A stretch of DNA of 38,792 nucleotides. Origin: Reclinomonas americana ATCC 50394 (Eukaryota). Shown in pieces: positions 643 through 31,373 of the stretch. Positions within the stretch are counted from its first letter, which is position 1, and the number at the start of each line of letters is the position of its first letter. The notes under the pieces were generated by a model. It ran no database searches. It was not told where the DNA came from and saw nothing but the letters and a program-made list of their open reading frames with translations. The position numbers were made by a program, and so were the translations under genes. The stretch is from positions 24,102 to 62,893 of the forward strand of contig PS015198.1 of assembly GCA_048213135.1 (NCBI GenBank), given 5' to 3'.

Positions 643-1433
643 CTGCCAAAGACTACCGTGGAGATGAAGGCACCGGCGCCAATTGGTTCGGAAACACCAA
701 TGTCGGCGTGGCCGGCGAGAATGCCGATGATGATGGCCGCGAGGTCGGGGGCGCCACTGCACGAGGGGGGACAAGAGAGTGAGAAGTCTGGAGAGGAGAG
801 AAGACACGAGCTGTCTCCAGCTGGGCCTCTCTCTCACTCTGCGAACTATTTCCTCTCATGGTGTACATCCCTTGTGGAATGACACAGAGTAAGAGGCAGT
901 TGAGCAAGAGAGAGCGGAAGAAGTGGTGCTTGAGGGGTGAGAGAACGTGTGAGAATCAAAGGGGAACCAAGGGACAGAGTGGGAAAGAGGAGAAGAATGG
1001 CGCAGAGAGAGAGAGAGAGAGAAGGTGAGACTCTAGCACGCTGGCTGCTTTCTCTCCCCTGTCTTCCCTCCAAGCTGAGTCGCACCTTCTCTCTCTCTGC
1101 GCCAGTCTTCTCCGCTTTCCCACTCTGTCCCTCTTTACTCTCGCTCCCAGCGTGCCAGAGAATGGTTGAGANNNNNNNNNNNNNNNNNNNNTCACTCTCA
1201 CTCAACTTTCCCAACGCCAACAACGTGACTCCCGCCACATTCGGCGACAATCGCAGTGCCTTGGACAGGCGAGTGAGCGCCGGACAGAAAAAGTGCTCAA
1301 CGACATTGGCCAGGAGGAGAAAGGTGAGTGCGAGGAGGAGGCACACGAGGATGGCGTGCAGAGGGAGAGGGAGGTGTGAGAGGAGGGCGATGATCCCGTG
1401 TGGTTCGTCGTCGTCTGAGAGAGGGAGAGGCAT
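643..1433 (-). CDS. Cation/Ca2+ exchanger (CaCA superfamily, CCX/NCLX-like), 5' exons only; gene runs off the window start
   Basis: Exons 1433-1207 and 756-643 splice to MPLPLSDDD...[44 protein letters not shown]...GAGAFISTVVFG. This is the conserved alpha-1 repeat ([13 protein letters not shown]) of CCX/NCLX exchangers. Confidence 0.9.
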
Positions 1434-1871
1434 GTCTTCTGGAGGAAGAGAAGTGACAAGACAAAGGACATGTGGGACTGTCAACAGAAGTTGTCACTCG
1501 TTTTTGGACCTCTACAACAGTCTGGTATACAAGAGAGACGAGTCTTGCAACCTGTCACACTGCGATCCACACGCAACAACGAGAACTCGCGCTCATAAGA
1601 TGCACAGCACTTGAGATATCGATATCGATCACAAGATGCGCAGTACTGCCAGACTGGCCTTGGTGTTGCGGCTACGGCTGTCTGCTGTACGCAAGAGACG
1701 AGTCTTGCAACCTGCAGCACCGCTAGCCACGCATAACATCGAGACATCGTTCGTCTAAGTGTGCAAGTTGTCGTCACTCTGCTTGTGCCTGACAAGCTGT
1801 TTCGTCTACGATGCTCTGCTGTGCATGAGAGACGAGTCCTTGTTGCAAGCAACAGCAGTACTGCTACGTAT

Positions 1872-2365
1872 TTGGACAGGCGAGTGAGCGCCGGGCAGAA
1901 AAAGTGCTCAACGACATTGGCCAGGAGGAGAAAGGTGAGTGCGAGGAGAAGGCACACGAGAATGGCGTGCAGAGGGAGAGGGAGGTGTGAGAGGAGGGCG
2001 ATGATCCCGTGTGGTTCGTCGTCGTCTGAGAGGGGGAGAGGCATGGCTTCTGGTGGAAGATAAGTGACAAGACAAAGGACATATGGGACTGTCAACAGAA
2101 GTTGTCACTCGTTTTTGGACCTCTACAACAGTCTGGTATACAAGAGAGACGAGTCTTGCAACCTGCAACACTGCGATCCACACGCAACAACGAGAACTCG
2201 TGCTAATAAGATGCTCAGCACTTGAGATATCGATATCGATATCGATCACAAGATGCGCAGTAGTACTGCCAGACTAAGCCTTGGTGTTGCGGCTACGGCT
2301 GTCTGCTGTGCGAAGGGACGAATCTTGCAACTTGCAGCACCGCTAGCCACGCATAACATCGAAAT
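1872..2365 (-). pseudogene. Tandem partial duplicate of the exchanger upstream region and first exon (copy of about 1261-1745), truncated at LTRLSK
   Basis: ttggacaggcgagtgagcgccgg occurs at 1261 and 1872. The ATG at 2044 gives the same MPLPLSDDDEPHG...CPALTRLSK peptide and then diverges. There are scattered substitutions between the copies. Confidence 0.75.
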
Positions 2366-2480
2366 ATCGTGGTTGAAAGGAGCTCGATGATGTGAACAGC
2401 GGAGATCAGAAGTTGTCACTCTGCAGGCCGTGCTATTCCGTTTACCCTTGACCCCTTGACAAGTGTCGGCAGCCATCCAA

Positions 2481-2991
2481 TCACTGGCGACTCAGGAGCT
2501 CATCAAGTTCGGCCTGGAAACTGCGGACACTGTGCAAGGGTCCGCGCGTCTGGTTGGTCGCCAGCACGATGTCGATACGCGCCTGTTACATCAACAAAAC
2601 AATCACTGTGTATGAGATAGAAAGAAAACACCAGCTCGGTGAAGCTACACACCTTCTCCTTCAACTCGCGAATTTCTTCCTGATGCTTTTGCTCGCGAAG
2701 CAATCCACGCATCTTCTCCTCGCGAAGCATCACTTGCTGCTCACGAAGCTTCGCTTCGCGAACCACTGATCGCAACAGCTGTTCGCGGAGCTCCGTCTGT
2801 AAGCGCTCCGCCTCTATGAGCGAGCCCTGCTCGCGCACGTTTCGATGAATCGTCAACACAGCCTCGCGCACGCCCGTGACGGACGGCGGCTCGCCTACTG
2901 CCGAGAGCCGATGCAGGACGCCATCCAACGACAGCAGGATCTGACGATTCCTCTCTGCCAGTTCTGGAATGGGTACTTCGCCCGCTTTCAT
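2481..2991 (-). CDS. Small coiled-coil protein of unknown function (upstream exons possible)
   Basis: Exon from ATG 2991 to AAG|GTGTGT (about 2652), then CAG| exon 2582-2481 (ARIDIVLATN...ELDELLSRQ*). E/R/L/Q-rich helical sequence. Confidence 0.55.
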
Positions 2992-3206
2992 GGGCACTGC
3001 GTTCTGTGGAGTGTCACAAATCTACAATACGAATTCGAACTCCACTCCCTCTCCCCCACCGAACACACCTTGCCTGTCGACTGCGAGGGCCGAGGGTGAG
3101 TTCGCCGCACCAGTCGTGTACGTCGCCTCTGCTTGCACAACGCCGAGGAGGAGTCCCCTCCACTGATAAGCGCGCTTTCATCGAAGCGCACTCTCCGATC
3201 TACATA

Positions 3207-3245
<39 letters not shown>

Positions 3246-3964: not shown

Positions 3965-4002
<38 letters not shown>

Positions 4003-4993
4003 TCCCCTTCTCAATAATAATAATAAAACTTCACTGATCCATACACAACAATGAGCATCTACCAGTGATCGCCAGCAAGCCTCGTTTGCTTTCCTTATTC
4101 TCTCTCTCTCTCTCGCTGTCTATCTGTCTGTTCTCTCGTCCACCAGACAGCTCTGACGATGCATACATCTTCCCGCTCCTCCTTCCTCTCTCTGCCGCTC
4201 ACCCGCTCTCTTTCAATCTCTCGAGCCAACATCCCCCTTGTGTAAATGAGATAAGCGAGGTTATCCTTCGCACGTACCACCGTGGAATTCCATTGTCAGA
4301 GAGGGTCCCTCAGCAACCACTGGCACAGCAGAGTCCCCCTTGTGGTGGACCTGTTGCTGCTGCTGTTGTTGTGCATATTCCTCGCGCAACACCAACCTTG
4401 TTGGCAATGACAGGTTCTCCTTGTCTGCATCAAGACCACATGCTTGTCCACTGCCGAGTGGGTGGACGATGGCGGTTGCAAGAGCGCTGCACTCTGACAT
4501 TCCGCCGACAGAGACTCACGTGGGACACTGGAGCAGGACGAGTAACTGATGACAGAGTAAAGAAAGGTCAAGAGACCAACTGCCATTGACTCGTGAAGAG
4601 GGAAAGGTGGGATAACAGAAAGACAGCAGGTGCAAAACATCATCCTTCACTGCTCTCTGTCTCAGTCAACTCGGCCCTATAGCAAAGCCAGTATCGCCAA
4701 CTGCAAACAGATGGTGAGGATCAGCTCCCTCAATCGTCCAATCTCAACTCGATGAAGTAGCGCACTGATTCTTACTCCTCCATCTCCTTTTGTTTTCCTC
4801 ACTCCACTCCCCTGTCCGCCATCGCTCACCTGTACCGCAGACCACATGATCGCTTGGCGGCTGCATTGCACTCCTCCAAGCACCATTCCCTGTTCCATCA
4901 CCAGCCAAACTGCGACAGATACTCAGCTACCTTGCAACCTCTCTGAAACGGCTGCAACATTGTGCGTCGGTAACACACCGTATTCTACTGCGA

Positions 4994-7900
4994 TCATGAA
5001 GATCCCGCTGCAGCCGACGCTGAGCCTCCAGCGTCGACCACACCGACGCCAACTGCCGAGTCACACAACCGCTTCAATTCGTCGTGCACATACGATGCCG
5101 ACACGCGCGTTGCTTGCGGCCTCTGCACCGTTACACGCACAATTACCATATCACCACAAATTTTCCCACCGGTGTGTCAGCACGCAACCCAGCACTGTCG
5201 AATCAAGTTGCGAATGTCCTCCGACACTTCTGCTCGCACACTCTGGTCGTCAAGATTGCCAGGCGGAACGCTATCAAGCATGCACCGCATGATGGCCGGT
5301 ATCGTCAGTCCACCGTACGGCTCACGGCGAGTGGAGATGAACCAGAGCAGTGATCCAAGACTGAATACGTCTGCCCTTTCGTCGTACTGAACGCGAGGGC
5401 GGAACAGAAGCGTGAGGTCAACTATGTTGCTCAGCCTGCGCAGACACAGCCAGATGCTCACTTCCTGGTCCAGCATGGTCTCGGGCGCAGCGTACGCCAT
5501 CGATCCGTGCTTTGACTGCATCCTGCCGAGAGTGCCATGAATCTTGGCCTCGCCAAAGTCGCAGACCTTGGCCACGAGTCGGTCAGCGCTGATGAGAATG
5601 TCTGCAGAGATTGACGAAGCAAAGAGCAGGATCAGCCTATGGGAGTGGGGATAGACAAGCAAACACATCGATAACTTGAACTCTTCGCAGTCAGCTTGTC
5701 ATAGCAGGTAATTAAGAGAGAGCGGCATTTCTCACCACCTCACTATTATCTCCCACTGCCTTTTCCTTTCTCTAATCCTGTCTTCTCTCTGTTTACTCAC
5801 TATGACACGCAACTTTGCGGCTTGAGATCTCGATGCACCACCCGACGTGAATGCATGTGGACCACCGCCGATGCAACTTGCACGAGCAGACTGAGCAACT
5901 GTTTAGTCGTCAAGTGCTGATCTTTCACCAAGTCGTGCAGCGTCTCTGCGTTGCCTCGCTCTCCTTCTTGACCGACATATTCAAGAACGAGGCCGAGACC
6001 ACTTGGATCGTCGTCGCACACAGCAAGCAATTTCACAATGTGTGGATGACTGTATGGAAGCTCATGAAGGACGGCGGCTAGCAGTCACACACAATGGTCA
6101 TTAATGCACGCAACTCAAGCTGCACCAACAGAGAGTGCTCGTTTTCGAAGCTCTCACGGACAAGTTTCCATTCCGCCGACCGCGAATTCCGAGCTTGTTG
6201 CCTGACCTGGTACCGCTTGTACGCCACAGTTTGCGTGACACCGCCTAGGTGGACAGAAGCATGGAAGACAGCATTTTGACCTGGGAGCACGACGCAGGAG
6301 ATATCAGGAATTCCTGTCCTGCACGGACGCATCGTCGCACAAACCGATAGCGAGCTGTCTCGCCATGGGGGAGATTTGAATTTCTGAGGAAAGAACAAGC
6401 GGTGCGCGAATGGCGAATCTGGATACTCTTTCAGTTACCAACTCCGCCGTCACATGAATGCGGCTCACGTCTGCGCCAGTGAATAAATGAGGAAGAATCA
6501 GCACAAAGCGGCAAGCGCTGCCGCATTCGCAACTCTCATATGCCTGAAACAACAGACGAATGCTCTCATGCTGTCCATCCGGGAACAGTGTGTGGAGCGA
6601 GTTGCGAACCAGTCGCATAACGCTCACATACTCAACGTCTTCGAGTGTAGAAATACGAGCCAGGTGAGCCACGCGATGGCGCACGTCCCGCAAGTTTTCC
6701 ACGGCTCGAATCTGCATGGTGGAGAATTGAGCGCAAAACAACGGAGACGCACACGAGAGTCTGCGAAAGATAATGCTCACTTTGGAGTCGTCAGCGAGCA
6801 TGCGCATTGCGAGTCGGTCCTCATTCGTGACAGGATCTAGGCGGACACGAGTATTCTGCAGATCCTCAACACGACAAGCGGTGACAGGAACGAAGGTGAT
6901 GTACAACAGCAAGGTGCTCAGCAACGACACATCCATGCCACTGGTCACTCCACTCCGTTTAAATTCCCGCACTGCTTCGTAGTTTGAAGGGAAAAGCTCG
7001 ACGGAGCGCATACGGATGTTGCCACGCTTGTCTAGAGTCATTCGACAATATCTGCAACCCACAATGAGCGGTCATGACCCAGCGCGGCGCAAAATGCAGT
7101 CTCTCACCTCGGTCGAGGAGACGGCAAGCAGAGTTGCTCAATGTCGAATGCACCTGGGAAAAACCCTACGACGAGTTGTTGCAGCAGCGAGCCAAGAGCC
7201 AGAGGAATTATCTCGTGCACAACCTCGGTGAGCATCAAGATTGGACGTCGGTCGCTGCGCACATAATTGCGAGTGAGGCGTCATGATGAGAGAAAAAGCA
7301 CATGATTGCCAAGAAACCTGAGGAAGTCCATATGAAACAGAGCTCGCAGCTGACGTTCTAACTCCTTAGCTTTATGTCTCCACTCGTCGCGTTCAGCGGA
7401 GGCCTTGGCAAGATACATGCGGAGGACGTCACATTCGGCGGTATCGGAATTGTAGACCAAACCAAATGGATCGTTGCGCTTACTAACAGCCTGCAGGGAG
7501 TCGAGATTTACGACGGGGGACAACAAACAGGACGTGAATCAACTAATAAGGCAAGGCAATGAGTACTTGAGCTCACCGATTGCGAAGAGGGCACTATGAT
7601 GGGATGGGGTACATGCAAAATCGTCAGTAGTTTTTAGAACAGTTGAGCACAACATGGAAACAGACCTAGAGCCGAGGTCTGCACTCGACGGCGCTTGCAG
7701 TAAAATAGCCAGTTGGCGAGAAGGGCGACGGCAGCGGTCCACACTATGGCGAGGAAGAGATCAGACACCAAGGCCATAAGTTTCGAAATCGACCACGGGA
7801 TGCCGTTGCGTTCAGTTCGCTTTCCCAGCTCCACGCCGTCACCACCTGCCAGTGACCACTCTCTCAAGATTTCGTCACCATCAGCATGAACAATGTACCC

Positions 7901-9995: not shown

Positions 9996-12900
9996 TCAAT
10001 CCGCCCGACCCACCTGCACCATGCAATGCGCCGGCCACGTCAAGTACCGATACAGGAACGACGGAATCGCAAAGCTGAAGGCGATAGTGAGAAAACACCC
10101 TCATTTGCGCCCGATGTGCATGTGGTTTTTGAAGCGCTCTCACTTTCCCTTTCCCTTTCCGCCCCCTTCTCCCTTCCACCACCCGCCTCACCTATACCGC
10201 GGCACACCCAACCGCTTGGCAGCTGCATTGCACTCCTCCAACCGCCCACCCTTGCTCCACCCAAACTGCCGCAAATACTCCACCGGCTCCGACGTGCCAA
10301 ACAAAATCGGATGATTGCGATCGCGCATAGCCTTCAAGTACACGCTGTTGAACGAGTGCTCGATCATCGGCTGCGCGCAACGGGGAGGGTGAGGACAGAG
10401 GGGGGAGGCTGAGAGGGGGGGAGGGATAAAAAAGCGCACCGTGTTGACAAAGTCGCACACCAGCTGACTGCCGCGCGGGGACATGGCGGCCGTCGTCGCC
10501 AGCGTGTCCTTCACCAGTGCCTCGGGGAGGTACATGAAGACGCCCTGCGAAATAGGGGGGAAGGGGGAAGGGGAAGGGAGAAGGGCGTTAAGGGAGAAGG
10601 GGAAGGGGAAGGGAGAAGGGGAAGGGGAATGGGAAGGGGAATGGGCAGGGGAAGGGGCAGGGGAAGGGAATGGAAGGGAGAGAGAAAGATAGAGAGCGAG
10701 CGAGAGAGGGAAAGTGATAAAGAACGAAAAAAATCGAATAGAGAGAGAGAGAACAGATAAGCAACATGGTGCAAAAAGAACTTGAGGAGCACGATGGTGA
10801 TGTACTGACAGATGTGCAAAGCACGTTCAACAGAAGGCAACACCGAATAAAGACAAGAAAAAGGGAGAGAAACAGAAGACAGCAGCCCTTCTCCCACTCC
10901 CTTCCCCTACATGGACGCAACTTGCCACACAGATAGTACACGCCCGGCGACGCCAGCATGCACGAGCCAGTGGCCGTCGCACCCAACGCGCCCTGCGCAA
11001 ACGAGGCACCAGTGGCCACCGAGAACACCGCTTGCTGACCAGACGGGTCGCTGGACTGCAGAGAAGCGCTCGAATTCACAGCCGGTGATCCGCTGCAATC
11101 GGCGGCCGCGTACAGGCCAAACGAGCCACCAGCGCCCAGCTGACGATTGGCAAAGTGCTGGCCGGCCACTGTCAGGCGATAGTCGGCGAGACCGTTCACC
11201 AGCTGCGGTGAGCGGCTCACGGCGCTGATGGAGTCTGTTGGGGCGAGGAGGGAGAAAGGAGAGAAAGAAGGAGAGAATGAGCGCAAGGCCAACATAATGG
11301 AAAGGGTGGGCTGAGCACACAAGGTAGCGTATGCGGAAAAATCATCAGCATGGATGGAGACGCAACAGACAAACACAGTGGCCACAAACTCGTTGCGAGC
11401 GGCCGTGCCAGCACCGTCCACGTCGATGCACAGGTACCGCTCACCGCCATTGGCGTCAGCCGACGCATTAAAGGTGAGCGAGGCAGCAGCGTTGGAGTTG
11501 ACGACAGTGGTCGGCGACACGCTGGTGCACGAGCGATCGAGGAAGAGAGTGGCAGTGGAGGCAGTCGACCAGGCAATGGCCGAGCCACTCACATTGATGT
11601 CGACGATCTGGCCAGCGGTGCCGGCCTTGATGGCGATGTTGGAGGGCGAGATGACTTGCGAAGAGAAAACAAAATTGGGCGCGAAAAATCTTTAGTGACA
11701 TGTGCGTTCACCCAACGGTCAATGGTTTCGCGCCCATGGGGCTCGGAAATAGGTAGATGAGGATGCGATAGGGAGGGAGGGAGGGAGGGAGGGAAGAGGG
11801 GAAGAAAGAAAGAGGTGCAAAGAGAGGGGAGAGAGAGAGAGAGCGAGAGAGAAAGGGGAGAAAGGGACAAAGTGGGGGCAGCTGCAGATGAACATGCAGA
11901 CTCACGAACACAAGGAGAATGCGAGTGTGAGAGTGAGAGAACAAGATACTGCAGCACTCGCTGTCATCGTGCGCAGCAAAGTGAGAGTGCCAGCATAAAG
12001 ATCTAGATAAGAACATCGAGTCAAACACTGCACGTGGAGCAGGCTACGCACGCACAAGATGTGCCTCTCTCAAGTACACACACACGCACATATGTGAGAC
12101 TGTTGACAATGAATTGCAAACGAGGAAAACAAGTGCAAAGAGAAAAAGCGCGCGTAAAACCGTTTGGTTGCGAACAAACTTCCTGAATCGGCAGTGTGTG
12201 GCCTGTGCGTGAGAGAGAGAGAGAGAGAGTGTGTGTGTGTGTGTGCACTCACTTACAGCTGCAGCTGTGCTGCACAGCACAGTGAGCGACAGCAGTGCGA
12301 TGAGGCACAGCGCAGTGGTGGAGCGGACAAGAGCGGGAGCTGACATGTTGTTGCCCTCCTGTGCGCACGCGCGAGAGTGGTGAGAGAGAGGCACAGGCAC
12401 GATGGTGGTGTGCGTGTGTGTGTGTGATGGAGAAAAGAGAGAGAGACACACAAGCTTGAGAGAGACGAACACAAAGCACAGCAAGAGATACCAACATGCA
12501 GTCAATGGAAAAGGAAAGCAGGGTGCGACGAAGAAGAGAGTGGAGGCACAGTGGAGGCTGTCAAGAGGGAGGCAAGAGACAAGCGGCAAGGTGAGTGCTC
12601 ACCGAGAGAGACAGAAAAAATTAAGGCTGTGTGCGCCGATCGATCGGTCTGATATCTGCGAAAGTGTATCGAAGCGCAGTCTCCGCACCGGGAATTACAG
12701 ACGACAGCAATGCATCATACACCATCTGAGACATCACAAACATGCAGCCAAACTGCAAGATTTCGGGGTTCGTTTCTCTTTGTCACTCAATATTTCTCGC
12801 TTGCACCGTCCACCATCTTCACTCTAACGCGCAAACTCATCCCTTCTGACCTTCCACGCCCTGTGTATGTATCAAACGAAGATGCAATCCTCACTCCCTC

Positions 12901-13586: not shown

Positions 13587-13644
<58 letters not shown>

Positions 13645-16077: not shown

Positions 16078-16350
16078 AACCCTCAGCCCTCAACCCTCGA
16101 TCATCAACCCTCACTATTCGACCCTCAAACCTCAACCCTCAACCCTTCACACTCAAACCTTAACCCTCAACCCTTCACCCTCAACCCTCAACCCTCGTCC
16201 CTCAACCCTCCACCCTTAACCCTCAACCCTCGACCATCAACCATCAACCCTCCAGCAGCAACCCTCGTCCCTCAACCCTTCCTCCACTACCCTCCACCCT
16301 TCCCCCACTACCCCATTACCCTCCACCCTCCACCCTCAACCCTCAACCCT
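16078..16350. repeat. Degenerate heptamer array (CCCTCAA / TTGAGGG)n, telomere-like, intergenic
   Basis: Many aaccctc, accctcaa and acccttaa units between the Vps41-like stop (16401) and the methyltransferase ATG (15967). Confidence 0.75.
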
Positions 16351-17678: not shown

Positions 17679-18627
17679 CACTCACTGCTCCACATTCCTC
17701 ACTCGCCCTCACACTCACACACACATCTTTGGCTCGCGTCTAACTCTATCACTCGCACCCACCTTCCTCACTCACTCACTGCCTATCTCATTACCTTGCT
17801 TGCAGCACCCTGCACGGACTAAATTATACTTACTTACACACTCAATCTCTAACTCCCTCACTCCCCCTTCCCCCTCTCCCCCTTTCCCCTTCCCACGCAC
17901 ATGGCGGCTCCTCCTCCTCCGCCTCAAACGCCGGAGTCGACGGCACCGCCGGCGGCGGCGACGACAACGACGACGGACTGTCGGTCACATCCGTAAACCT
18001 CGACGACGACGACGACGACACCCCCTGCTGCTGCGGCGGCGACTCCACGCCCACCGGCGACGGACTCGCCGTGGATGGCGAGCGATCGCGCATCGCGGGC
18101 GACAGCGACATGGACGACGGCGAGGCCGCGCCAGTCATCATGTCGCTGAATTGCCGCTGCCGCGCGGTGCGCCGGTACGCCGGCGCCACCACCTTTTCCA
18201 GCAGCCACGCAATGAGATCGGCGTGGTAGCGCGACGAGCGCTGCGGGTCGGTGCGGGTGACGCGGGCGAGGAAGAGAAATTTGAGTTCCTCGTCGGGCGC
18301 CAGCAGCTCCACCATGTGATACATGTCGAGGGTGCACTGCGAGAATTCTTGCAGGGCGCGGACTGGATTCAACTCCACGAGCTGCGCGGGAGGGGAGAAG
18401 GGGGAAAGGCAAAGGGTGAGGAATGGGGAAGGGTGAGAAGGGGAAGGGAACGGGATAAATATCAACAAAGGGCAAAGGAAGAGTGAGAGAGAAAAGGGAG
18501 AAGGCAGGCAGGAGAATGGAGGAGGATAGGATTGAAGGCAGAAACGGCAATCGAGGAGACGGACGAGCGCGACAGCGAATTGTCAAATAGTTGAAGAAAG
18601 ACAGCTTCATATTGAGAGAATGATGGC

Positions 18628-18680
<53 letters not shown>

Positions 18681-21600
18681 AACACTCAAATGCAAACAGA
18701 ACGAGAGAACACCGCAGAGGGAATGAGACAGACAATGCACGAGAGACGGGGAACGAAAGAACGAGAGAGAAGAGGAGACACAGACAGAGACAGAGAGATA
18801 CAGAGCGTCAAAGAGAGAGATACAGAGACAGAGTCAGAGACAAAGAGATAGATAGAGAGAAAGATAACGTGGCGAAGACAACAGAGACAGAGTCAGAGAC
18901 AAGCGAGATCGATAGAGAGAAAGAAATCGTGGCGGAGACAGAAATAGAGATAGAGAGCGAGACAGAGACAACGAAAGTGAGACAGAGAAAAGAGCGTAAG
19001 TTACGGAGGAGAGATACAACGGCGAACAAGCTAGGATACTCACACAACGTAAAGAGAGAGAGAGTGTGTGTGTGTTGAGCTTTACAAAACAGAGCGAGTG
19101 ACCGGAGACAGACACTTGTGCAATACCGCACGCAACAGAAGGAAACGAATGAGGAAAGGACGAAATGAGCACACGGATGGTGCAGCAGACAAGAACAGAG
19201 CATGCGAGTGCGAATGCAACAGAGTGAGACCAGAGGAAAACGCACTCTCTCTCTCTTTCTCTCGCGACGAGAAAGGTGTGTGGGCGACGTCGCCGAGAAA
19301 CAACAGCAGCGAGACGGAAAACAAAATCACAGTGAGCATAAAAGAGGACAGTGACGCCACTGAGAAAAAAGACATAATACAGCGCGGGCCGACATGGCAA
19401 AACAAACACAATCAAAAGTAAAGCAAGCAAGAGAATGACAGACACTGAAACACGAGAAGAAGAATACGAACAAAACTCTCACACAAGAGAGAGAGAAGGA
19501 CAATGAATCCAGATCATTAAAGTGGGTCGACAGCAAACTCACGTCCAGCATCTTCTCAATATCTTTCCCTTCTCTCTCCCATCCCTTCACCCCCTTCTCC
19601 CCTCCCTCACCCTGAACACCAAATCCGTCTTGAACCGCTGCTGCAACTGATCATTAGCCCCCTCCGCCTCCTCCGCCTCCGAACCCATACTCGACGACGA
19701 AATGGCCGGCCGCATACCCCCCGGTCCCACCCGCGGAGCCAGATGCATGCTGGGCGCGGCGTTGGCCGCTCGAGCCGCCGCCGTGGGGTCGCCACCGGGG
19801 TCCTCCTTGAGCGCAAATTTGACGGCGTGTTCGCGAAAGTAGTCAAAGGCGCGCTCGTCGCGAAGGTCCAGCAGGACTTCCAGGGCCTCGAGGTACTGCG
19901 ATGGGGAAAAGAGGAGAGGGGAGAAGGGATGAGGGGGAAGGAGAAGGGACGAGGGGAAAAGGGAGAAGTGATGAGGGAAGAGAGCAGTAGGCAGAAGGGA
20001 TGACGGAGTTGCGATCAAACACGGCGACAGACTCCGTCAAGACGCGACCTTGATACCAGTGGAGAGCGGATGGAACAGGGATGCAACAGAAGGACAGCAA
20101 ACAAAATGACAACAGAGACGAGTGGGAGGAGAGAGCGAGTGAATACTGGCATGAGAAGGGCACCAATTGAGGGCAACTGAGAACAGAGTAAAAAGAGGTC
20201 AAAGAAAAACAATTTTGCAAGCTGTCAGTCTCATATTCTCCTTGCGTCTCTCTCTTCCTCTCAACTCATTGTCTCTCACTCGTACCTTCTCATCTCAAAC
20301 CTTCTCTCATTCTCTCGTCCTCACATGTTGCAGTCTTTCTTCCCTATTCTCTCCACTCACTGCTCCTCTTATTCTCTGCCATTTTATCATCTCGCTGACT
20401 CGTTCTCTCATTCCTTGCATCTCGCCTTCATCTCACTCGCATTCTCTCATCTCGACACTCCTCTCATTACTCACACCTCACATTGCAGTCTTTCGCTCTT
20501 CCTTGTTCTCTCCACTCTGAGTCCCTCTTATTTTCCCTCATTTCCTCATCTCGCTGTCTCTCTCTCTCCCATCCTCTTTCATTGTCTCACATCTTCTCTC
20601 ACCGCCTCCTATCTCTCAGTTCTCCTCAACTCGTTGTCTCTCTCGTTCTCTCTCCTCCTCTCATGCCCTCCCATTTCGCAGTCTCTCATCTTGTCTCTCT
20701 GATTCTCAGCTCTCTCCTTCCTCTCTCACCCCCTCATCTCGCTGTCTCTCTAATTCTCCCTTTCCCAATTCTCTCTCCCCCTTCCCCTGTCCCTTCCCCT
20801 CTATCCCCCTTTCCCCAAAATGCACCTTGTGACTGTAATCCAACAACCTATGCAACGCCCGCAGCAAATCCACAATCTGCCGCACTTGCTCCGTCGTCGG
20901 CACCGGCAACCCGAGCTGCGCCAGCGACTCGGCCGACAAGCTCCCCAGATTCTGTGCCGCCGACGGCGTGCGCGGGAGTCGCGGCGCGAGTGGTGTGCGC
21001 GCCGGTCCACCACCGAGAGGTGACGCCACGGCGCGACGAGTGACCGACGGTGTCATGTTGGCCTCGCGCAGCACTTCGTAGATGCCGGAGCGGGCGCTGT
21101 GTGGAGTTGAGTGAGAGAGAGAGAGAGGATAGTAAAAGGAGAGGAGAGAGATGACTGGACGCACGGTGTGGCCACGACAATGCGCGGCGAGAAACTGGAC
21201 ATGTTCAGGCCGCGCGTGACCTCCAGAAGTTCCTCGCGCACACGCTTGGCGAGTTGTCCTGCGACGTCGAGTGACAGATGAGCATCACCACTCTCTGTAC
21301 GAAAAAGGGAGAGACGCAACTGGTGGAGTAATAAATGGGCCAGCGAGTGACGCAGCCGAGAAAGGTGCGGTAGTCCTTCCGCTTCAAAAACGTCTCCAGG
21401 ACGCGAAAGTACACGTCGCCTTTGAGAAGCGAGCGGCTGTTGAAGGGGAGGTATTCTTCCAGCAGGGGGAGTTGGTCGCACTGCGCAAAAGGGGGAAGAA
21501 GAGAGAGAGGAGAGAGATTGAGAAAGTAAGAAGACGAAGGAGAAGAAGAAGAAGAAGAGGAGGAGGAGGAGGAGGAGGAGAAGAAGAGCAAGAACAAAAA

Positions 21601-21743
21601 GAAGACGAAGAAGAAGAATAACAAGAACAAGAACAAGAAGAAGGAGAACAATTACAAGAAGAAGAATAACAAGAACAAGAAGAAGAAGAAGAAGAAGAAG
21701 AACAAGGACAGGCGAACAGGAAGAAGAAGAAGCAGAGGAGCAG

Positions 21744-21776
<33 letters not shown>

Positions 21777-24700
21777 AAGAAGAAGAAGAAGAGGAGGAGG
21801 AGAGAGAAAGACTGCATTGTTGAGATAACGAGAGGAATGTGTTGCTGCCTACTGTAAGAGAGATTGACAATGTGAGAAGCGCGGCAAGCTGGTCACATGT
21901 GCGAGACAGAAGGAACAAGGAGAAGAACAGAGCGTCTAGTCACCCTGCTTGTTTCTGTGCTCATTCTTTCTGTACTCTCTGTTTCCTCTCTCAGTGAAGC
22001 TGTTGATCCACAGAGCGTTTCTTCTTCTTCTTCTTCTTCTTCTTCGTCTTCTTCTTTGTGATCCACACAAACAAGGCGAGTGGCAACCCATTGCTTCCAT
22101 TATTCAACAGACACGGACTCTCTTCTCCTTCTCCTTCTTTCTGTTTCTATACTGAAGAGGTGACAGGTAAGCCATTCTTCTCCTCGTTTCGAATCGACGC
22201 ACGCTGTTTCGTTTTCTATTCCTTGCTGCCCCACACTCGCACGGTGACGCACAACACATTATTCTCAATAGTTGAATGAGACAGACATTTCTTTCTCCCT
22301 CTACTTTTCTCTGTTCCACAGTAAAAGGACATAGACTCTCTATTTCTCCAAGGTACGCATCCAGCAATCCATTGTTTCAATCGATGCAGACATTTTTGCT
22401 TTTCCGTCCCACACCAAGCCCACGCTCGCTAATTCAATCTCTTATCCTCTTGTCCTTCTTCTTGCTGTCTCGCACGAATAAGCAACAGGCACACCATTCT
22501 CCTCCCCTCTCCATTCCCTATTCTCTCACGCTCTGATAAGTTCAATCTCTTCCTCTCGTTCTTCTTCTTGCTGTCTCACATGGACAAGCAACATGCAAAC
22601 CACTCTCGTCCTCCTTCCCACCCTTTCCCTATTCTGCCTCCCCAATCCTTTCTCGTCGCGCCCACCCTTTCCTTTATCCCCACCCTTTCTCTTATCTCAC
22701 CCTTTCCCTATTCTCCCTCCCCACCCTTTCCCTTTTTTCCCCTTTTCACGAAACTTCCGCTAATCTCTCCGCAAACACCGCCCAGTAATCGCGCGTGGCA
22801 CGCGGCAGAATAAACTCGCTGTACACCGTAATGGCCGTGCGGAACTGCTTGCGCTCCCTCCACAAGTGCGCGGCGTAGTAGTCGGCGATCTCCACCACAG
22901 ATTTCACCCTATTGGCAAGTGAGTCACGAGTCACCTTCCCCGATTTGTCCATCAACCGCGCAACTGATTCGCTGTCTTGGCCGCCTGCGTGGCGTCCGTA
23001 AATCTCCCCTCCATGACAAACGAGAGCACCCTGTGATCCCATCCCCCGTGTCAGTCCCAGTGAGAGCCTCTCAGAATGCAGTCTGCAATGACGCACCTCT
23101 CGGCCGTGTTCAGTGGTCTCAGCAGGTACACCTCCGAGTCGAGCACGAAATACACCACCGGCACGTCGCGCGTGTTGGTGGAGGTCGAGTGGCGCCCAGA
23201 GTAACCGGGTCGGCTGATGGAGCCGAAGGAGCCGAGTGGTTGCATGCCGTCGAGGAGGGGGGACTCCTGAGAGGAGGGTGAGGCGCCAAAGAGGAAGGGG
23301 GGAGAAAAGGGAAAAGAAAAAGGGAGAAGAAAGGGAGGAAGGGAGAGGAGGAGGGGATAGGAAAGCGAAAAATGATAGGCTGGGGGAGAAAGAGAATTGT
23401 ATCTGTCTCTCTGCACCTTCTCTCTACACGCACAGCAAGAATGAGCGAGAGATCAGTTGGATCACGCATTTCCTCACATGCATCTGCAGAATTTAAGAGC
23501 CTCTCTTTGTCTCTAACGTGCTGAAGCATTCGCTTCTTCTGTTTTATGTCTCTGTTCTCACCCGTCTCGCGCACACACACATCAAGGATGAGCAAGAGCT
23601 TTGACGGAAAATGCGCTTCCTCAATGCATCAAAGCAAGAGACTCTCTTTGTCCCTTGCTTGCTCCTGCTCCTTCTGCAAATTTCTCTCCCATCTCTCACA
23701 CCGTGTAACAAGAATGAGCGAGAGATCTGACGGACCATGCTTTTCTCACAAGGCATCTGCGGATCTCTCGTTGTCTCTTCGCAGTATCTCGCTTCCCTCA
23801 CACACATACAGAAAGAACTGGTGAGAGATCTGACGGATCATGCCTTCCACGCCTACATCTGCAGACTTTGTCAACCTCTCACTGTCTTGTTCCTCCCTGA
23901 AGCATTTCGCTTCTTCTGTTTTCTGTCTGTCTTCTCCCGTCTCACACCCGCAGAAGAGAGAAAGAGCGGGAGAACTGTCATATCATACCTTCCTCGCATC
24001 ACGTGTCTCTCTTGTTTCTCTCAACTCGCTCCTTTTCTTGCTCTTCCACATCACAAGCTCACTCTCATCCTTCTCCTATCACCTCCCTTCTCCAGATTCC
24101 CTTCCCCACCCATCCCTCTCACGCAACTTCCATTATTGTCGATGCATGCATATCAAACGTCGTAAACGTGCCGAAAAATCTGCAGCACTTTCAGTCACCC
24201 GCACACCCCCTTCACTCCTTCCATGCCCACTCACCTCCTCGCCGTCGAGTGCGGGAACGGCAACACCTGCTGAAACTCAAAATCGGGCGCCGCCGAGTAC
24301 AGCGACACCACGGGAATGGAGTGTTGGCGCGTGTCGGAGGCGCGCAGCTCGAGCGGGACAAAGAACTGCACGAGCTGGCTCGTTGCCGGCACCTCCTCGG
24401 TGACCACCACGACCTTGTCGTCGATTTCGGCCACGGCGACGACGGGGGCAGTGTGGTCGAGCACGCTGTTGATTTGGATGGCGGCGCTGAAAGAGGGAAG
24501 GGAAAGGGACGAAGGGCAAAGGGAAGTGAGATTGCATCGAAGGGAGAGGGGCGAAAATGGATTGCGTGTGAGACCGAGCACAACAAGGGACTCGAAAAGA
24601 GCAGCGATGGATGTAAATGCGTGCAAGAACAAGAGAGGCAAGCGGAAAGGGTTGAGAGCAGGAGAGCAGCAGTGGATGGAATGCGTGTCGTACAAAAGAG

Positions 24701-27700
24701 AGCATGGGAAGAGGTGCACGCGCGTGTGGAGCGCATCACGAAGAGACAGGGAGATGAAACACAAGAGAGACGTTGTAATAGCAACGGATTGTATGCATGT
24801 GACAGAAAGAGAGGCTCGCGTCAATGACGGAAGCAACGAGACAGGAGAGCAGTGAAGGATGCAACGAGACAGGAGAGCAGCAACGTATGCGTGCCCATCA
24901 ATGAGAAAAAAGAGAAGGAGGACAGGCAAGGAGGACAACAATGGATAAGAATGCGAGCGAGAGCAATGGCGGCGCTTGTCTCGCAAAACAATTGAGTGGA
25001 GAGCTGTGCTCTCTCATTCGGCCGTGCTACCTTAGTCTCTCCCACTTCGAAGACTCCTCCTACTCAGTGACTCTCTTCCTCACACTCCTTCTCCTCTTCC
25101 TCCTCTTCAAGAACAACCATCAAGTGGGACATAAAGACACCGCAAATGGGAACAGGAGTCCAGACAGAGATGGGCTCGAGGCACACCGAACAAAGCACGC
25201 AAAACGAAAGAGCACACCAGCAGGAAGGAGAGGCACATGTGTGAGGACAGAGTAGGCGGTGTGGAAGAATAAGAGACAGTCCGTGTGTGGGTAAGAGCAA
25301 CTAAGTGGGACATAAAGACACCGCAAATGGGGACAGGAGTCAGACAGAGATGGGCTCGAGGCACAAAAAAGGAGGCACGCAAACGAAATGGCATACCAGC
25401 AGGAAGGAGAGGCACATGTGTGAGGACAGAGTAAGAAGGTGTGGAAGAATAAGAAAGTGATTCCGCGTGTCTGTGAGCGAGAGAGTGACGGGCCGGAATG
25501 AGAACCTCTCTCTCTCTCTCATGCACACACTCTCCCTCCCTCCCTCCCTCCCTCCCTCCCTCCCTCCCTCCCCATCCCTTCACCCTTTCCCATACACGCA
25601 ACGAATCCTGCATCAACTTCCTCCCGTCAATGACGAACAGACTGCATCCGCTCGTCACATAGATGCTGGCGTTGCCGAGGAAGAAGTTGACGGCTGCCAC
25701 ACAGAGATGAGTCATCGTAGCCGGCAAACACCTCCACATCCGACGCAACGAATATCGGGACGATCGTAAAAGCGCACGAGAATCTGCTGCCGTCGGAGGC
25801 TGTACACCACGACCTCCTCGTTGTTGGTCAGCACGAAACGGTCGCTGCGATCACGACAGAGTCAGTTTCTCCTCCCGATGCACTCTTTGTTTGACAGCGC
25901 GCAACTTCAAGTGCACAATCTTGGTCACGGGAAGGTGCGGATTCTGCAGCTTCACCACCACCGACGCACTGTGGCCGATGATCAGGCGGATGCCGCGCTT
26001 CACCACGCGACCGGCCACGCCGCAGTACACAACGCCCATGTTCTCGCCGAGGGGTTCAGTGACGCAGAGGCTGTGGACTGTGTGGGGGGATGGTGAGGGC
26101 AGGGAGGAGGAGGAAGGAGAAGGGTGAGCAGGCACGGAACTGGGTGTTTCGAGGGATTTGCCAAAGGCCAGCACAGAGTCGTCGAGAAAGTCGTATACCA
26201 TGATGCGGCCGTCTTGGCCGCCGCTGACGACGGCGGTGTCTTGCAGGCAGATGGAGAGGACGGCACCCTGTAAAAAGGGGAAGGGGGGTGTAAGGGAATG
26301 GGGGACAAGGGGGAAGGAGGAGGAAGAAGAGGAGAAGATGAAGAAGAGGAGAACGCCCTCTCTGTCTCTCACACACTCTCACTCCGTCTCTCGCTCTCAC
26401 TCCCTCTCAAGGAAAAACGAAGGAAGAAGGAGGAGGACGAGAACACATCCTCCTTCCCTTCTCCCTCGCCCGTTTCTGTCATTCTGCGTCACTCGCCTCA
26501 CATGTTCTCTGTCTCTTGGAAAAGTGAGGAGGAAGGTAAGAGGAACACTGTCTCTCTTTCTTCTATTCTGTCCGCTCTTTCTCTCTCCGTTTCTCTCTCT
26601 CTCTCTCTTGTGAAGAAGAACGAGAAGATAAAAACGACGACGGAGACTGAGACTACATCCTCTCACTCTCTCTTGAAGAACAAGAAGAGGGAAAGGATGA
26701 GGGACGAGAGGAGAAGAAGAGGAACACTGTCTCTTTCTCTCTCAAGAACAAGAACAAGAACAAGAAGAACGGAGAAGATGAGAAGACAGCAGTCTCTCTC
26801 CCTCTGTGAAGAAGAACGAGAAGATGAAAACGACGACGGAGACCGAGACTACAGCCTCTCACTCTCTCTTGAAGAACAAGAATAGGGAAAGGGCGAGGGA
26901 CGAGAAGAGGAGAAGAAGCTCTCTCAAGAAGAAGAAGAAGAACAACAACAACAACAAGAACGGAGACGATGAGAAGACAGCAGTCTCTCTCCCTCTCTGA
27001 AGAAGAACGAGAAGATAAAAACGACGACGGAGGCTGAGACTACAGCCTCTCACTCTCTCTCATGAAGAACAAGAAGAGGGAAAGGGCGAGGGACGAGAAG
27101 AGGAGAAGAAGCTATAAGAGGAACAAGAACAAGAAAAACGGAGAAGATGAGAAGACAGCAGTCTCGCTCTCCCTCTCTGAAGAAGAACGAGAAGATAAAA
27201 CCGACGACGGAGACTGAGACTACAGCCTCCCTCTCTCTCTCTCTTGAAGAACAAGAAGAGGGAAAGGAGGAGGGACGAGAGGAGAAGAAGAAGCTCTCTC
27301 AAAGAGAAGAAGAAGAAGAACAACAAGAACAAGAACGGAGAAGATGAGAAGACAGCAGTATCTCTCTCCGTTTCTGAAGAAGAATGAGAAGATGAAAACG
27401 ACGACGGAGGCTGAGACTACAGCCTCCCTCTCGCTCTTGAAGAACAAGAAGAAGAAGAAGAACAACAACAACAACAAGCACGGAGAAGATGAGAAGACAG
27501 CAGTCTCTCTCTCCCTCTCTGAAGAAGAACGAGAAGATAAAAACGACGACGGAGACTGAGACCACAGCCTCTCTCTCTCTCTCTCTCTTGAAGTACAAGA
27601 AGAGGGAAAGGATGAGGGAGAAGAAGAAGAGGAAACACTGTCTCTCTTTCTCTCTCGTGTCACTCTCTGTCACACATACACTTTCTCTCTCAGGAAGAAG

Positions 27701-29123: not shown

Positions 29124-29173
<50 letters not shown>

Positions 29174-29185
29174 CGTCTCTCTCTT

Positions 29186-29233
<48 letters not shown>

Positions 29234-29476
29234 ATTCCGTTCCATTCCATCGTCTCTTCCCTCAGTTCACTCCTCTTTCCCTTCTCTCATTCTGCCATTT
29301 TCACTACTCGTCTCCGGGTGCTTGCTTGCCTTCACTGCTCCCCTCTCACACACTTCGCATCCTTTCCTTGTCACTCTTTCTCGTCCTTGCTCTCTGCATC
29401 CACTCTCCCCTCTTCACCCCCTCCCCTCTTCACTCCGTTCCCTCTCACTCCCCTTCCTCCCTTCTTGCAGCCCACC

Positions 29477-31373
29477 ATGCGCGGCAACCTGCAACGCCGC
29501 GCCGGCACCGCCAAGTGGATCGCCGAACCCGACGACGATCTCCACCAATCCACTCCCCCGTCTCCCCCATCTCCCTCCTCCACCACCACCACCGCCTCCG
29601 GCAATCCGACTGCCGAGTTCCGCGACTGGTTCCGCACGCACGAGATGGGCAACTACTGGGGCGGCGACTGGCACCTCGCGCTGACCTCGGTGGTGTGCCT
29701 GACGGTGGCCGTGGCGTCGCTGGTGTTTGGCGTGCGCTGGGCCACGCTGCGGTGGTGGGAGGTGTTGACGGTGCCAGTGAGCTTTGTGTATGCAAAGTTA
29801 CTCACTCGCTCTCTATCTCTCTCACACACACGTTTCAGCCTCGTCTTACTTATCCTTCTCCCCTTCTCTCCTTCCTCCTCCTCACAGTGCCATCGAATAC
29901 TTTGGCCACAAGGGCCCGCTGCACCACCGCGGTGTGGCCGCCTTTGCCTACCGCCGCCACACGCAGATCCACCACCGCTACTTCAATCACACCAACATGC
30001 ATTGCGACTCGTGGGCCCTGGACGCCAAGGCGATTTTGTTCCCGCCGACCATGACGCTCTTTTTCGTGGTGCTGGCGATGCCGATGGCGTGGGTAGGTGA
30101 GTTGGGGCGGAAATGGGGAAGGGGGGAAAAGGAGGGGAAGGGGGAGGGAGGGAGAGAAGGGGAAAGACTTGCAAAGGGACTGAAGGAGAGAAGAGACAGA
30201 GTCATTTGCAGATATGTTGAGACGCGATCGCATCAGCGGAGTGTGCTTGCCGAGGAGAGAAAACAAGCCGAGAGGGGAAAGGCAGAGGCGCGAGGAAAAG
30301 AAGGCGATGAGTAGATGAGAAAGACACGTAAAGAGAGAAAGCAGGAGATTGTCGGAGTTAGAAGGGAGATAGAAAAGAAACGACAGAGTCACCTGCAGAC
30401 GTGTTGAGTAACAGTCGCTTCAGGAGTGTGCTCTCCAAAGGCAGGAAGTCGTCATTGGCGAACCGAGCGGGAATGAGAACGGAACAGAGAGGAGTGAGAC
30501 AGCCAACGACGAGTAAATGAGACAGACGCATAGAGAGACGAAGAAGAAGGGTAATAGAAAGATAGCCAGGGGGGAACGAAAGAGAATGAGAGAATGAAAT
30601 GAGATAATTCAAGATAGAAGGAGAGACAGTGTGAGAAGGCCGAGCAAGAGAAACTTGGAGTGGCAAAAAGAGTTGAGTGAGAAAGCCATGCGAAAGCAAC
30701 AGTATCAACAACAGAGAGATGAAGAGGAGCAGACTTAGGATGGGCATCGTGGGAAGCGCTTGGAAATGACAGAGGAGAGAAAGGAATGCAGAGAGAGATA
30801 ACGAAACAGCGCCGAGAGTGACAGAATCACTTGGGCGAGAATAATTTTGAGCGCGCTCACCACTTCTCCCTCTCACAGTGTCACTGCTGTTCACGACCAA
30901 CTGCGCGTTCCTCTGCACGGCCACGTGCATGGTGTACTACGTGAACTAGTTGCGTGCTTCCTCGCCCCCTCTTACCCCCATTGATGCTCACATCTCGCGG
31001 CAGTGAATTCCTCCATCTGGCGTGCCACATGCTGCCGCTGGACAAGCCGCAAACGTCGCTGCCGATGCGCCTGTTGGCCGCCATTGCGCAGCACCATCGC
31101 ATCCACCATCACAAGGAGCACGCGCTGCAGGGCAACTGGAACATCACATTCCCGCTTTTTGATTATCTGATGGGGTTGCGTTGGTGGAATGATGTGGTGG
31201 GTGGTGGTGGTGGTGGCGAGTGGACTCACTGATTGGTGCGCAGAACCAAGATCGACCCGGCGACGGTGAAGTTGCGGGGGTTTTGTATGCTCTTGTACTC
31301 GACGGTCAGACTCACTCCCGTTCTGTGCTGCAGGCCGGAGCTGAAGCCGACGACGAAGAAGGCGGGAAAGTAA
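29477..31373 (+). CDS. Fatty acid hydroxylase / sterol desaturase superfamily membrane protein
   Basis: Exons 29477-29796, 29888-30096, 30879-30948, 31004-31174, 31244-31270, 31334-31373. His boxes EYFGHKGPLHH, YRRHTQIHHRYF, YEFLHLACH and QHHRIHH, then NWNITFPLFDYLMGT. Lys-rich C-terminus KKAGK*. Confidence 0.9.

Follow-up and report, generated by a model that had tools for sequence, protein, structure and literature searches.

The introns in this stretch of Reclinomonas americana DNA appear to use two classes of 5' splice site, the usual AG/GTGMGT (the slash marks the exon end) and a tight A/GTTGCGT(G), which would correspond to the usual word with its first intron G replaced by T, cut one base upstream. 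Our leading reading, to which we give about an even chance as a whole, is that the introns with this second type of donor, here called GTTNNG, are ordinary U2-type GT-AG introns with a second class of 5' splice site, and that shifted-register pairing of U1 is the most likely mechanism for the GTTGCGT class.

The sample is a single 38.8 kb window, that is, the whole stretch of 38,792 nucleotides that was analysed, with eight gene models. The donor census was taken from these hand-made models, whose GT/GC..AG ends and open frames were verified by script, and comprises 45 donors: 18 of GTTNNG type, six that begin with GTT but lie in the normal register, and 21 others. The 15 positions listed by the first-pass annotation all carry the GTT heptamer given for them, in the sense orientation of the gene they lie in (12 on the minus strand, 3 on the plus strand), and the base before the cut is other than G in 13 of them, as it had reported (A 10, C 2, T 1, G 2); 24127, 22964 and the unplaced 34105 complete the set of 18. 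The annotation was right that the motif class is present, but its share is higher than the suggested one third of introns, namely 18/45 donors (40%) in the window census. Calling it a major class is borne out inside the window, where GTTNNG donors occur in six of the eight gene models (five if the unplaced 34105 is left out). Both ends are known for 41 modelled introns, 40 of them GT-AG and one GC-AG. The predicted GTTNNG donors, with one candidate outside the census and one GC-AG comparator, are as follows.

757..1206, minus strand: intron of a Na+/Ca2+ exchanger-like gene, donor A/GTTGAGT; GT..AG ends and open frame checked.
1478..1577, minus strand: possible 100-base first intron of the exchanger gene, donor T/GTTGCGT; outside the census count.
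5123..5188, minus strand: intron of a kinase gene, donor G/GTTGCGT, after ...LIRQCW.
5602..5813, minus strand: intron of the kinase gene, donor A/GTTGCGT, in HRDLKPQ-N-IL.
6050..6114, minus strand: intron of the kinase gene, donor A/GTTGCGT, in L-D-HPHIV; open frame in the model.
6471..6533, minus strand: possible in-frame 63-base intron of the kinase gene, donor A/GTTGCGA; uncertain.
11235..11366, minus strand: in-frame 132-base intron of a secreted-protein gene, donor T/GTTGCGT.
15411..15481, minus strand: comparator GC-AG intron, donor AAAG/GCAAGT; ends checked, frame open by eye.
21259..21320, minus strand: 62-base intron of a large gene, donor A/GTTGCGT; no alternative compatible GT; ends CGCAG.
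21481..22754, minus strand: intron of the large gene, donor A/GTTTCGT; read-through meets a stop after 6 bases.
22909..22964, minus strand: intron, donor A/GTTGCGC; absent from the first list; no alternative compatible GT.
23267..24127, minus strand: intron, donor A/GTTGCGT; absent from the first list; sole compatible GT.
24487..25602, minus strand: intron of the large gene, donor C/GTTGCGT; open frame in the model.
25694..25749, minus strand: intron of the large gene, donor C/GTTGCGT; open frame in the model.
25845..25905, minus strand: intron of the large gene, donor A/GTTGCGC; sole phase-compatible GT for the fixed acceptor.
26078..26140, minus strand: in-frame 63-base intron of the large gene, which starts with WD40, donor A/GTTCCGT; no alternative compatible GT.
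30949..31003, plus strand: intron of a fatty-acid-hydroxylase-like gene, donor A/GTTGCGT, in N-Y-EFLH; open frame in the model.
31175..31243, plus strand: intron of the fatty-acid-hydroxylase-like gene, donor G/GTTGCGT, in LMG-T; open frame in the model.
31271..31333, plus strand: possible in-frame 63-base intron, donor A/GTTGCGG; uncertain.
34105..34111, plus strand: GTTGCGT after a possible first exon (ATG 33990); donor unplaced, counted as uncertain.

The sequence statistics favour a displaced register, a reading that they support in part. G stands at -1 in only 2 of the 18 GTTNNG donors versus 22 of the 27 other donors in the window census (Fisher p = 3.4e-6), in keeping with the earlier observation that most unshifted donors have G there, while A stands at -1 in 12/18 versus 2/27 and thereby matches the A found at -2 in 16/27 ordinary donors. 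Among the 13 better-supported GTTNNG donors the -1 base is A in nine, G in two and C in two. The six other donors with T at +3 (GTTTGT, GTTAGT, GTTTGC, GTTGGT, GTTTCT and GTTACT) are in the normal register, with G retained at -1. Scored against the profile of the other donors, the GTTNNG sites average -4.11 unslid and +3.92 after a one-base slide, which improves the score in 18/18. Part of the fit at +3 to +6 follows from the class definition itself (GTT, with G at +6); positions -1, -2, +4, +5 and +7 are independent of it. Ordinary donors, scored with a leave-one-out profile, give +2.06 unslid and -3.47 slid. Counted as base pairs to AUACUUACCUG, the textbook U1 and possibly not the host's, GTTNNG donors form 4.28 pairs unslid and 7.00 slid (better slid in 17/18), and ordinary donors form 7.22 with the same textbook, possibly non-host, U1 in the normal register. 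The near-perfect textbook fit of the donor at 15411..15481 hints at an ordinary U1 5' end. The proposed one-nucleotide displacement holds in that the profile fits only when slid, but the sites vary less than a displaced version of the usual consensus would: C occupies +5 in 17/18 GTTNNG donors versus 8/27 with C at the matching +4 among the others (p = 1.4e-5), and G occupies +8 in 12/18. Standard U1 pairing fails to explain the +5 C, because that C would face a U.

In the mechanism that we propose, U1 snRNA would pair with the second class in a register shifted by one nucleotide, placing the -1 A opposite U10, the +1 G opposite C9, the +3 U opposite A7, the +6 G opposite C4 and the +7 U opposite A3, and later-acting parts of the spliceosome would then cut at the only GU present. 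Because the GTTNNG consensus is tighter than the slid one, a dedicated or altered U1 stays a live rival, if an unlikely one in our estimation. Here the class would be read in the normal register by a second U1, or by one whose 5' end has changed to complement GUUGCGU, implying co-evolution of snRNAs and splice sites (cf. Entamoeba and Mastigamoeba), with two U1 species for two donor classes. The separate tight consensus, with its +5 C (17/18, against 8/27 for the +4 C) and its +8 G (12/18), speaks for such an RNA, as does the account in a preprint of U1 5' ends altered to fit the donors in Entamoeba and Mastigamoeba (10.1101/2022.06.08.495308). However, if a single ordinary U1 slides, the usual -2 base A is expected at -1, as observed; a variant retaining the usual CUG would still prefer G at -1, and the full complement of AGUUGCGUG would be unlike the standard U1 5' end at most positions. 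A search of the window with Rfam gave no match and no snRNA gene. Extended to the whole genome, the proposal becomes a tentative one, possible rather than probable: GT-AG 5' splice sites would be recognised in two parallel ways, by one U1 in two registers or by a second U1 (perhaps U6) variant for A/GUUGCGUG.

It seems improbable that U1 instead pairs in the normal register on either side of a single bulged U (at +2 or +3), with GCGU pairing as +3 to +6. GU-U-GCGU can be drawn in this way, with G+1 and U+2 pairing as usual, Table 3 of PMC4856993 lists +2/+3 bulge registers for 68 predicted human sites, and the extra U between GU and the downstream pairing block recalls the bulged-nucleotide and asymmetric-loop registers described there. 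Those registers, however, predict G at -1, since this base would stay opposite C9, whereas G is rare at -1 here, being kept in 2/18 GTTNNG donors versus 22/27 others. The displaced register is further favoured over a bulged U because the ordinary donor profile and a standard U1 5' end are matched only when the sites are slid by one base.

A slightly more doubtful explanation is that many of these sites are not donors, the exon boundaries having been mis-traced and GTTGCGT being a sense-strand motif of another kind, located in introns or close to exon ends. Two sense copies, at 10921 and 19136, do sit inside introns, four of the listed sites belong to optional in-frame introns, and a donor-blind exon chainer recovered only part of the modelled junctions. 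The position of several junctions nevertheless argues against this, and we infer that the GTTNNG sites are spliced as modelled. Pfam profile coordinates fix two of them to the residue, with none missing or extra. In the Na_Ca_ex profile, position 46 is the last of the exon upstream of 1206, 47 is the split codon N, and 48 opens the next exon, whose second residue is 49; in Pkinase, the exons on either side of 5813 end at 127 and start from 129, with the split codon N as 128 between them. A cut at or before 30949 is required because the exon end falls within an in-frame TAG (TA/G). Five of the 17 GTTNNG donors with a known acceptor are the sole phase-compatible GT, read-through meets a stop within 13 bases in 7/17, and all 16 exons of the large gene combine into a single open frame of 908 residues. 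The motif itself is enriched, with 16 copies of GTTGCGT on both strands of the whole window against 3.34 expected, a number reached in 0/100 shuffles, and GTTGCG occurs 23 times in gene-sense orientation versus 11 times antisense in the window. Modelled donors account for 15 of the 23 sense copies, and the eight outside donors are no commoner than the 11 antisense copies, which also speaks against a general sense-strand motif.

Support for the other junctions varies. Conserved motifs had been thought to pin several donors, and of these HRDLKPQ-N-IL at 5813 is exact by Pfam and L-D-HPHIV at 6114 fits the start of the kinase profile, the Pkinase match beginning at the first residue, H (profile 57), of the exon after that intron. 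A rival 32-base GTGCAT..TAG intron at 6114 was rejected, its length being far below the intron minimum of 55 in the window. The Pkinase match stops at the exon end before 5188, at profile 244 of 263, and read-through there reaches a stop after 9 bases; the following exon, RPQATR..., gave no match of its own in the Pfam search. Similarly, the FA_hydroxylase match reaches the last exon residue before 31175 (profile 130 of 132). Read-through at 24127 meets a stop after 6 bases, the preceding 52-base exon lying between two checked junctions. At 22964 the stop comes after 10 bases, and the 56-base length falls within the short class. The acceptor for 21320 is set at 21259/21260, as a nearer CAG would leave merely 26 bases, and the intron at 25845..25905 has a CTGAC motif 17 bases from its 3' end. 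One alternative compatible GT, at -24, exists for 22754. Two exist for 25749 (GTCCCG at -12 and GTGGAG at +12), so that the donor choice rests partly on the motif, and seven lie within the long read-through at 25602; the choice at such ambiguous sites leaned on the motif. The phase of 34105 (phase 1) does not suit the exon at 35629, the next one known, from which it is separated by an N gap.

The in-frame introns at 6533, 11366, 26140 and 31271 had been singled out as less certain, and we agree, the case for them consisting of a low codon score, a branch motif and a length typical of introns. The length and the CTNAY branch-like motifs of 6471..6533 agree with the short-intron class, and its mean codon log-odds is -0.19, versus +0.11 upstream. 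The corresponding values are -0.35 inside 11235..11366 versus +0.44 and +0.40 in its flanks, and -0.60 inside 26078..26140 versus +0.20 and +0.25. The former also has a pyrimidine tract and CAG, and the donor-blind exon chainer likewise picked it as an intron. For 31271..31333 the mean is -0.19, with a CTCAC motif 19 bases from the 3' end.

Apart from their donors, the GTTNNG introns resemble the others. CAG acceptors are found in 16/17 GTTNNG introns and 22/24 others (38/41 overall), CTNAY motifs are present 11-30 bases before the 3' end in 9/11 short GTTNNG introns and in 10/15 other short introns listed, and a short-length mode of 55-74 bases is common to both donor classes. In agreement with U2-type introns, the ends are GT/GC..AG in 41/41, intron removal gives open frames and joined profile motifs, and a branch-site-like motif and a pyrimidine-rich 3' end precede YAG. 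It is very improbable that a single mobile introner element, carrying its own 5' end, gave rise to the GTTGCGT introns: their first 7-8 bases are near-identical and many are 55-69 bases long, but all-against-all blastn of the 41 introns gave 25 pairs, all low-complexity matches of 15-28 bases and none linking two GTTNNG introns, and introns with ordinary donors have the same short-length mode. U12-type introns have the donor consensus RTATCCTT and the branch consensus TCCTTAAC. Such an identity does not fit the donor words GTTGCGT, GTTGAGT, GTTTCGT or GTTCCGT, or the short introns, in which inspection by eye showed no TCCTTAAC. The GTTGCGT introns are like U12-type introns in forming a second donor class, of tighter consensus, alongside the major class in the same genes, and unlike them in sharing CAG acceptors and CTNAY motifs with the other introns.

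The closest parallel to shifted-register pairing is provided by the +1-shifted human 5' splice sites (Roca and Krainer 2009, as summarised in Tan et al. 2016, PMC4856993), which likewise start with GUU, fit U1 poorly in the normal register and well when slid, and are cut at the GU. According to that summary, a shifted U1 register has been demonstrated for a few human sites, and the validated noncanonical registers together make up 1.5% of 201,541 sites (PMC4856993). Unlike these rare sites, the class predicted here comprises 18/45 donors in the window, with the tight consensus A/GTTGCGT(G). According to the preprint, Entamoeba has GUUUGU(U) donors matching a U1 5'-AACAAAC-3', and its relative Mastigamoeba has GUGCGC donors and a U1 with ACGUAC (10.1101/2022.06.08.495308). 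As in Entamoeba, the donor consensus has U at +3 and is specific to the lineage, and an snRNA change has been proposed as explanation; the six normal-register GTT donors (GTTTGT etc.) resemble the Entamoeba type, and GC-rich GUGCG-type donors like those here are seen in Mastigamoeba. As described there, however, Entamoeba and Mastigamoeba each have one consensus in the normal register, while here two classes, one base of register apart, would coexist. Our literature search found no published description of such a donor class.

If RNA confirms the junctions, a GTTGCGT start in about four of ten introns would be an unusual way of marking introns. With a single U1 in two registers, the choice of cut site would be independent of the U1 helix in about 40% of introns, and a second U1 variant would amount to an additional splice-site code, specific to the lineage, within the major spliceosome. 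What is known of how the cut site is fixed under an out-of-register U1 comes just from reporter experiments and a handful of sites in humans, and a genome with a large share of tight, one-base-displaced donors would be a natural system for asking whether U1, U6, U5 or Prp8 sets the cut site, whether snRNAs and splice sites co-evolve, and how two donor codes coexist within the same genes. Gene finders trained on GTRNGT would mis-call about four of ten exon ends in such a genome.

Lastly, we note some details of individual copies of the motif and of the exchanger-like gene. The sense GTTGCGT at 10921, not a modelled donor, lies 21 bases inside an intron, and that at 19136, also not a modelled donor, lies deep within one. 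The intron at 757..1206 contains an N gap. In the possible first intron at 1478..1577, an ATG and 19 bases are followed by GTTGCGT, the ACAG end is at 1478, and the phase suits the next exon; this stretch has a duplicate at 2188.

The window holds nuclear DNA of a eukaryote, interrupted by N gaps and rich in microsatellites; its genes lie on the minus strand between about 600 and 26,300 and on the plus strand from 29,477 onward. We traced exons by eye on three-frame printouts to give eight gene models (GC content 59.9% in exons, 50.5% in introns), and a script checked each intron for GT/GC..AG ends and the exons, once joined, for an open frame. A self-written exon chainer blind to donors mis-built the kinase and hydroxylase genes and was kept as a side check only. 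A search of the whole window with Rfam at gathering scores gave no matches. The share of GTTNNG donors, i.e., 5' splice sites of the GTTGCG kind, was as follows in the eight models.

Gene models and their share of GTTNNG donors
Minus strand, Na+/Ca2+ exchanger-like gene: 1 of 2 donors
Minus strand, kinase gene, weak HEPN-like match in its upstream part: 4 of 7
7634-9495, minus strand, gene with EGF repeats and WD40: 0 of 3
Minus strand, secreted-protein gene: 1 of 5
15098-15550, short three-exon partial model, family not assigned: 0 of 3
Minus strand, large gene starting with WD40 repeats, at least 16 exons, 908 residues as modelled: 8 of 15
Plus strand, fatty-acid-hydroxylase-like gene: 3 of 5
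Plus strand, gene with family not assigned: 1 of 5

The first-pass annotation had listed 15 GTT donors, and indeed each site carries its stated heptamer in the sense orientation of the gene it lies in, with a base other than G at -1 in 13 of 15, as it had claimed. It had put the GTT type at about one third of donors; our census of 45 donors from the hand-made models gave a higher share, 18 GTTNNG donors. The observation is confirmed, and in a stronger form than first stated. Fifteen of these are GTTGCG, with one each of GTTGAG, GTTTCG and GTTCCG, and three (24127, 22964 and the unplaced 34105) were absent from the earlier list. The other 27 donors comprise six that begin with GTT but are otherwise normal and 21 of the GTGCGT, GTGAGT and similar types, GTGCGT being the common form, including one AAAG/GCAAGT (slash, exon-intron boundary). 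Most eukaryotes rarely have T at +3; here the six T+3 donors in normal register read GTTTGT, GTTAGT, GTTTGC, GTTGGT, GTTTCT and GTTACT. Five of them have G at -1, and the Cys pattern in EGF-like repeats pins two of them.

Further donors
9327, 9118, 8799 and 7317, minus strand: normal-register GTT donors
37715 and 29797, plus strand: normal-register GTT donors
15411-15481, minus strand: GC-AG intron, donor AAAG/GCAAGT, matching the textbook consensus almost perfectly
1577: possible first-intron donor, left out of the census

GTTGCGT was observed 16 times in the window, where dinucleotide-preserving shuffles predict 3.34; none of 100 shuffles reached 16. The hexamer GTTGCG has 23 copies on gene-sense strands versus 11 antisense, and since modelled donors account for 15 of the sense copies, the remaining 8 are no commoner than the antisense ones.

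The two donor classes differ in the last base of the exon. G occupies -1 in 2/18 GTTNNG donors versus 22/27 other donors (p = 3.4e-6), and A in 12/18 versus 2/27; A is the usual base at -2 of the other donors (16/27). We built a donor profile from the other donors, using positions -3 to -1 and +3 to +6 and scoring these donors leave-one-out. GTTNNG donors had a mean score of -4.11 in the normal register and of +3.92 when slid one base, with the slid register better in all 18, whereas the other donors scored +2.06 in the normal register and -3.47 slid. Counted against the textbook U1 5' end, which may not be that of the host, GTTNNG donors could form 4.28 pairs unslid versus 7.00 slid, and the other donors 7.22 in the normal register. 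The -1 base, the profile scores and the pair counts argue that A/GTTGCGT acts as a slid AG/GTGCGT in which the intron's first base is altered and cleavage falls one base upstream. This is the picture of the first-pass annotation, a donor consensus displaced by one nucleotide, and we infer from the 45 hand-modelled donors of this one window that a displaced register is the best-supported explanation.

Several individual junctions could be anchored in protein families. At the intron starting at 1206, the upstream exon closes on position 46 of the Na_Ca_ex profile, N at 47 comes from the split codon, and the downstream exon picks up at 48/49. Around the 5813 intron, the Pkinase profile is matched from 57 to 127 before the intron and from 129 to 244 after it, and the split codon gives N at 128, completing HRDLKPQNIL. 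Moving both intron ends by one base would swap the conserved N for K in the exchanger motif and for S in the kinase loop, and we reason on this ground that the cuts at 1206 and 5813 fall before the G of GTT. The 6114 junction is supported because the following exon matches Pkinase from residue one, 30949 because the exon end interrupts an in-frame TAG, and 31175 because the FA_hydroxylase match reaches the last residue of the exon, 130 of 132. With the acceptor fixed and a scan from -45 to the first in-frame stop, 5/17 GTTNNG donors were the sole phase-compatible GT; read-through met a stop within 13 bases in 7/17. Junctions of the large gene rest on the window's own sequence through its hand-made model. 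The donors at 6533, 11366, 26140 and 31271, which the first-pass annotation regarded as less certain, deserve that caution, being optional in-frame introns whose support consists of intron-like length, branch-like motifs and codon scores.

The GTTNNG donors follow a stricter consensus than the ordinary ones: C stands at +5 in 17/18 donors (at the matching +4 of ordinary donors, C in 8/27 and A in 13/27), and G at +8 in 12/18. Standard U1 puts a U opposite the C at +5. This base would be explained by a U1 whose position 5 is G, as a preprint reports for Mastigamoeba (10.1101/2022.06.08.495308), or by a variant U1 dedicated to the class. The sole GC-AG intron, however, has the textbook AAAG/GCAAGT donor, which hints at an ordinary U1 5' end in the host. 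A normal register with a bulged U would retain G at -1, and this is not the pattern seen (2/18).

Apart from the displaced donor, we saw no sign that GTTNNG introns are of a different kind. CAG acceptors end 16/17 of them versus 22/24 of the others, CTNAY motifs lie near the 3' end of most short introns of both classes, and both classes occur in both modes of a bimodal length distribution, a tight mode of 55-74 bases and a group of 0.2-1.3 kb. Repeats of the (CT)n, (GA)n and GAAGGG-like kinds fill the longer introns. When all introns were compared with one another by blastn, 25 pairs matched, all over short stretches of low complexity, and no pair linked two members of the GTTNNG class; this speaks against an introner family. 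A U12 type is rejected because the donor words differ from the U12 consensus.

A displaced register of this kind is described for a few human sites: one study puts validated noncanonical U1 registers at 1.5% of human 5' splice sites, the shifted register being one rare kind among them (PMC4856993). A tunicate paper raises it merely as a possibility in its discussion. In the main texts of the papers returned by our literature searches on GTTGCG/GUUGCG donors and a shifted U1 register, we found no genome described with a major one-base-displaced donor class. The preprint describes GUUUGU donors with a matching U1 in Entamoeba, a type that our six normal-register GTT donors recall, and GUGCGC donors with a U1 of ACGUAC in Mastigamoeba (10.1101/2022.06.08.495308). 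Mastigamoeba balamuthi is not supported as the source of the window: its genome has 60.7% GC and GUGCGC donors, whereas the whole window has 53.5% GC, and GTGCGT as its common form.

Our models give two sense-strand copies of GTTGCGT no role as donors. The copy at 10921 (minus strand) lies 21 bases into the intron starting at 10941; as a donor it would mismatch the phase of the next exon, the 377 bases between hold no exon, and C/GTGTAC at 10941 was used instead. This copy may act as a decoy or as an alternative donor, though its phase misfits the next exon. The copy at 19136 was rejected as lying deep in an intron, with no AG and, by eye, only pyrimidine-rich sequence upstream. A further copy, at 7805, was rejected as a donor because it is antisense within a WD40 exon.

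Word-based protein searches with hydroxylase exon 2, the kinase exon and hydroxylase exon 4 gave no match, and a protein atlas search returned generic WD40 look-alikes only. An exhaustive HMMER search of representative proteins with the exon query 18381-18112 gave three matches (P0001-P0003). P0001 is the single true relative among them, a 121-residue ORF on a contig no longer than 1,174 bases in an ENA metagenome assembly. It is 55% identical to the exon at 17901-18381 (minus strand), with a match that begins at the exon's second residue, and indicates that a relative of the window's organism exists in environmental data. P0002 and P0003 were set aside as internally repetitive. A metagenome scan with the kinase exon found seven loci, at 33-42% identity too distant for intron comparison.

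Some further features of the genes were recorded. In the 7634-9495 gene (minus strand), a single open frame over three short introns takes in EGF-like Cys repeats, some eight WD40 repeats in an array and, at the C-terminus, a hydrophobic stretch, an unusual domain combination if this is truly one gene. The partial model at 15098-15550 might be a fucosyltransferase, although this is a guess. The upstream region of the kinase gene, 6534-7051 (minus strand), gives a weak Swt1-like HEPN match around an RHRVAH motif (E = 0.015, under the Pfam cut-off); an RNase L/Ire1-like arrangement of HEPN and kinase is possible but unproven. Downstream of the kinase gene, 4830-4930 (minus strand) holds a partial second copy of the exon that ends in ...EYLRQFGW...LEECNAAAKR..RYR (10192-10300, minus strand), probably a pseudogene fragment since it has an in-frame TGA. 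A tandem duplication (1261-1750 and 1872-2370, 93.8% identity over 500 aligned bases) spans the upstream region of the exchanger-like gene and the 5' part of its first large coding exon, and has GTTGCGT in both copies, at 1577 and 2188. Lastly, a minisatellite of degenerate heptamers at 16090-16350, which reads (CCCTCAA)n on the plus strand, lies directly downstream of the stop codon of the large gene.
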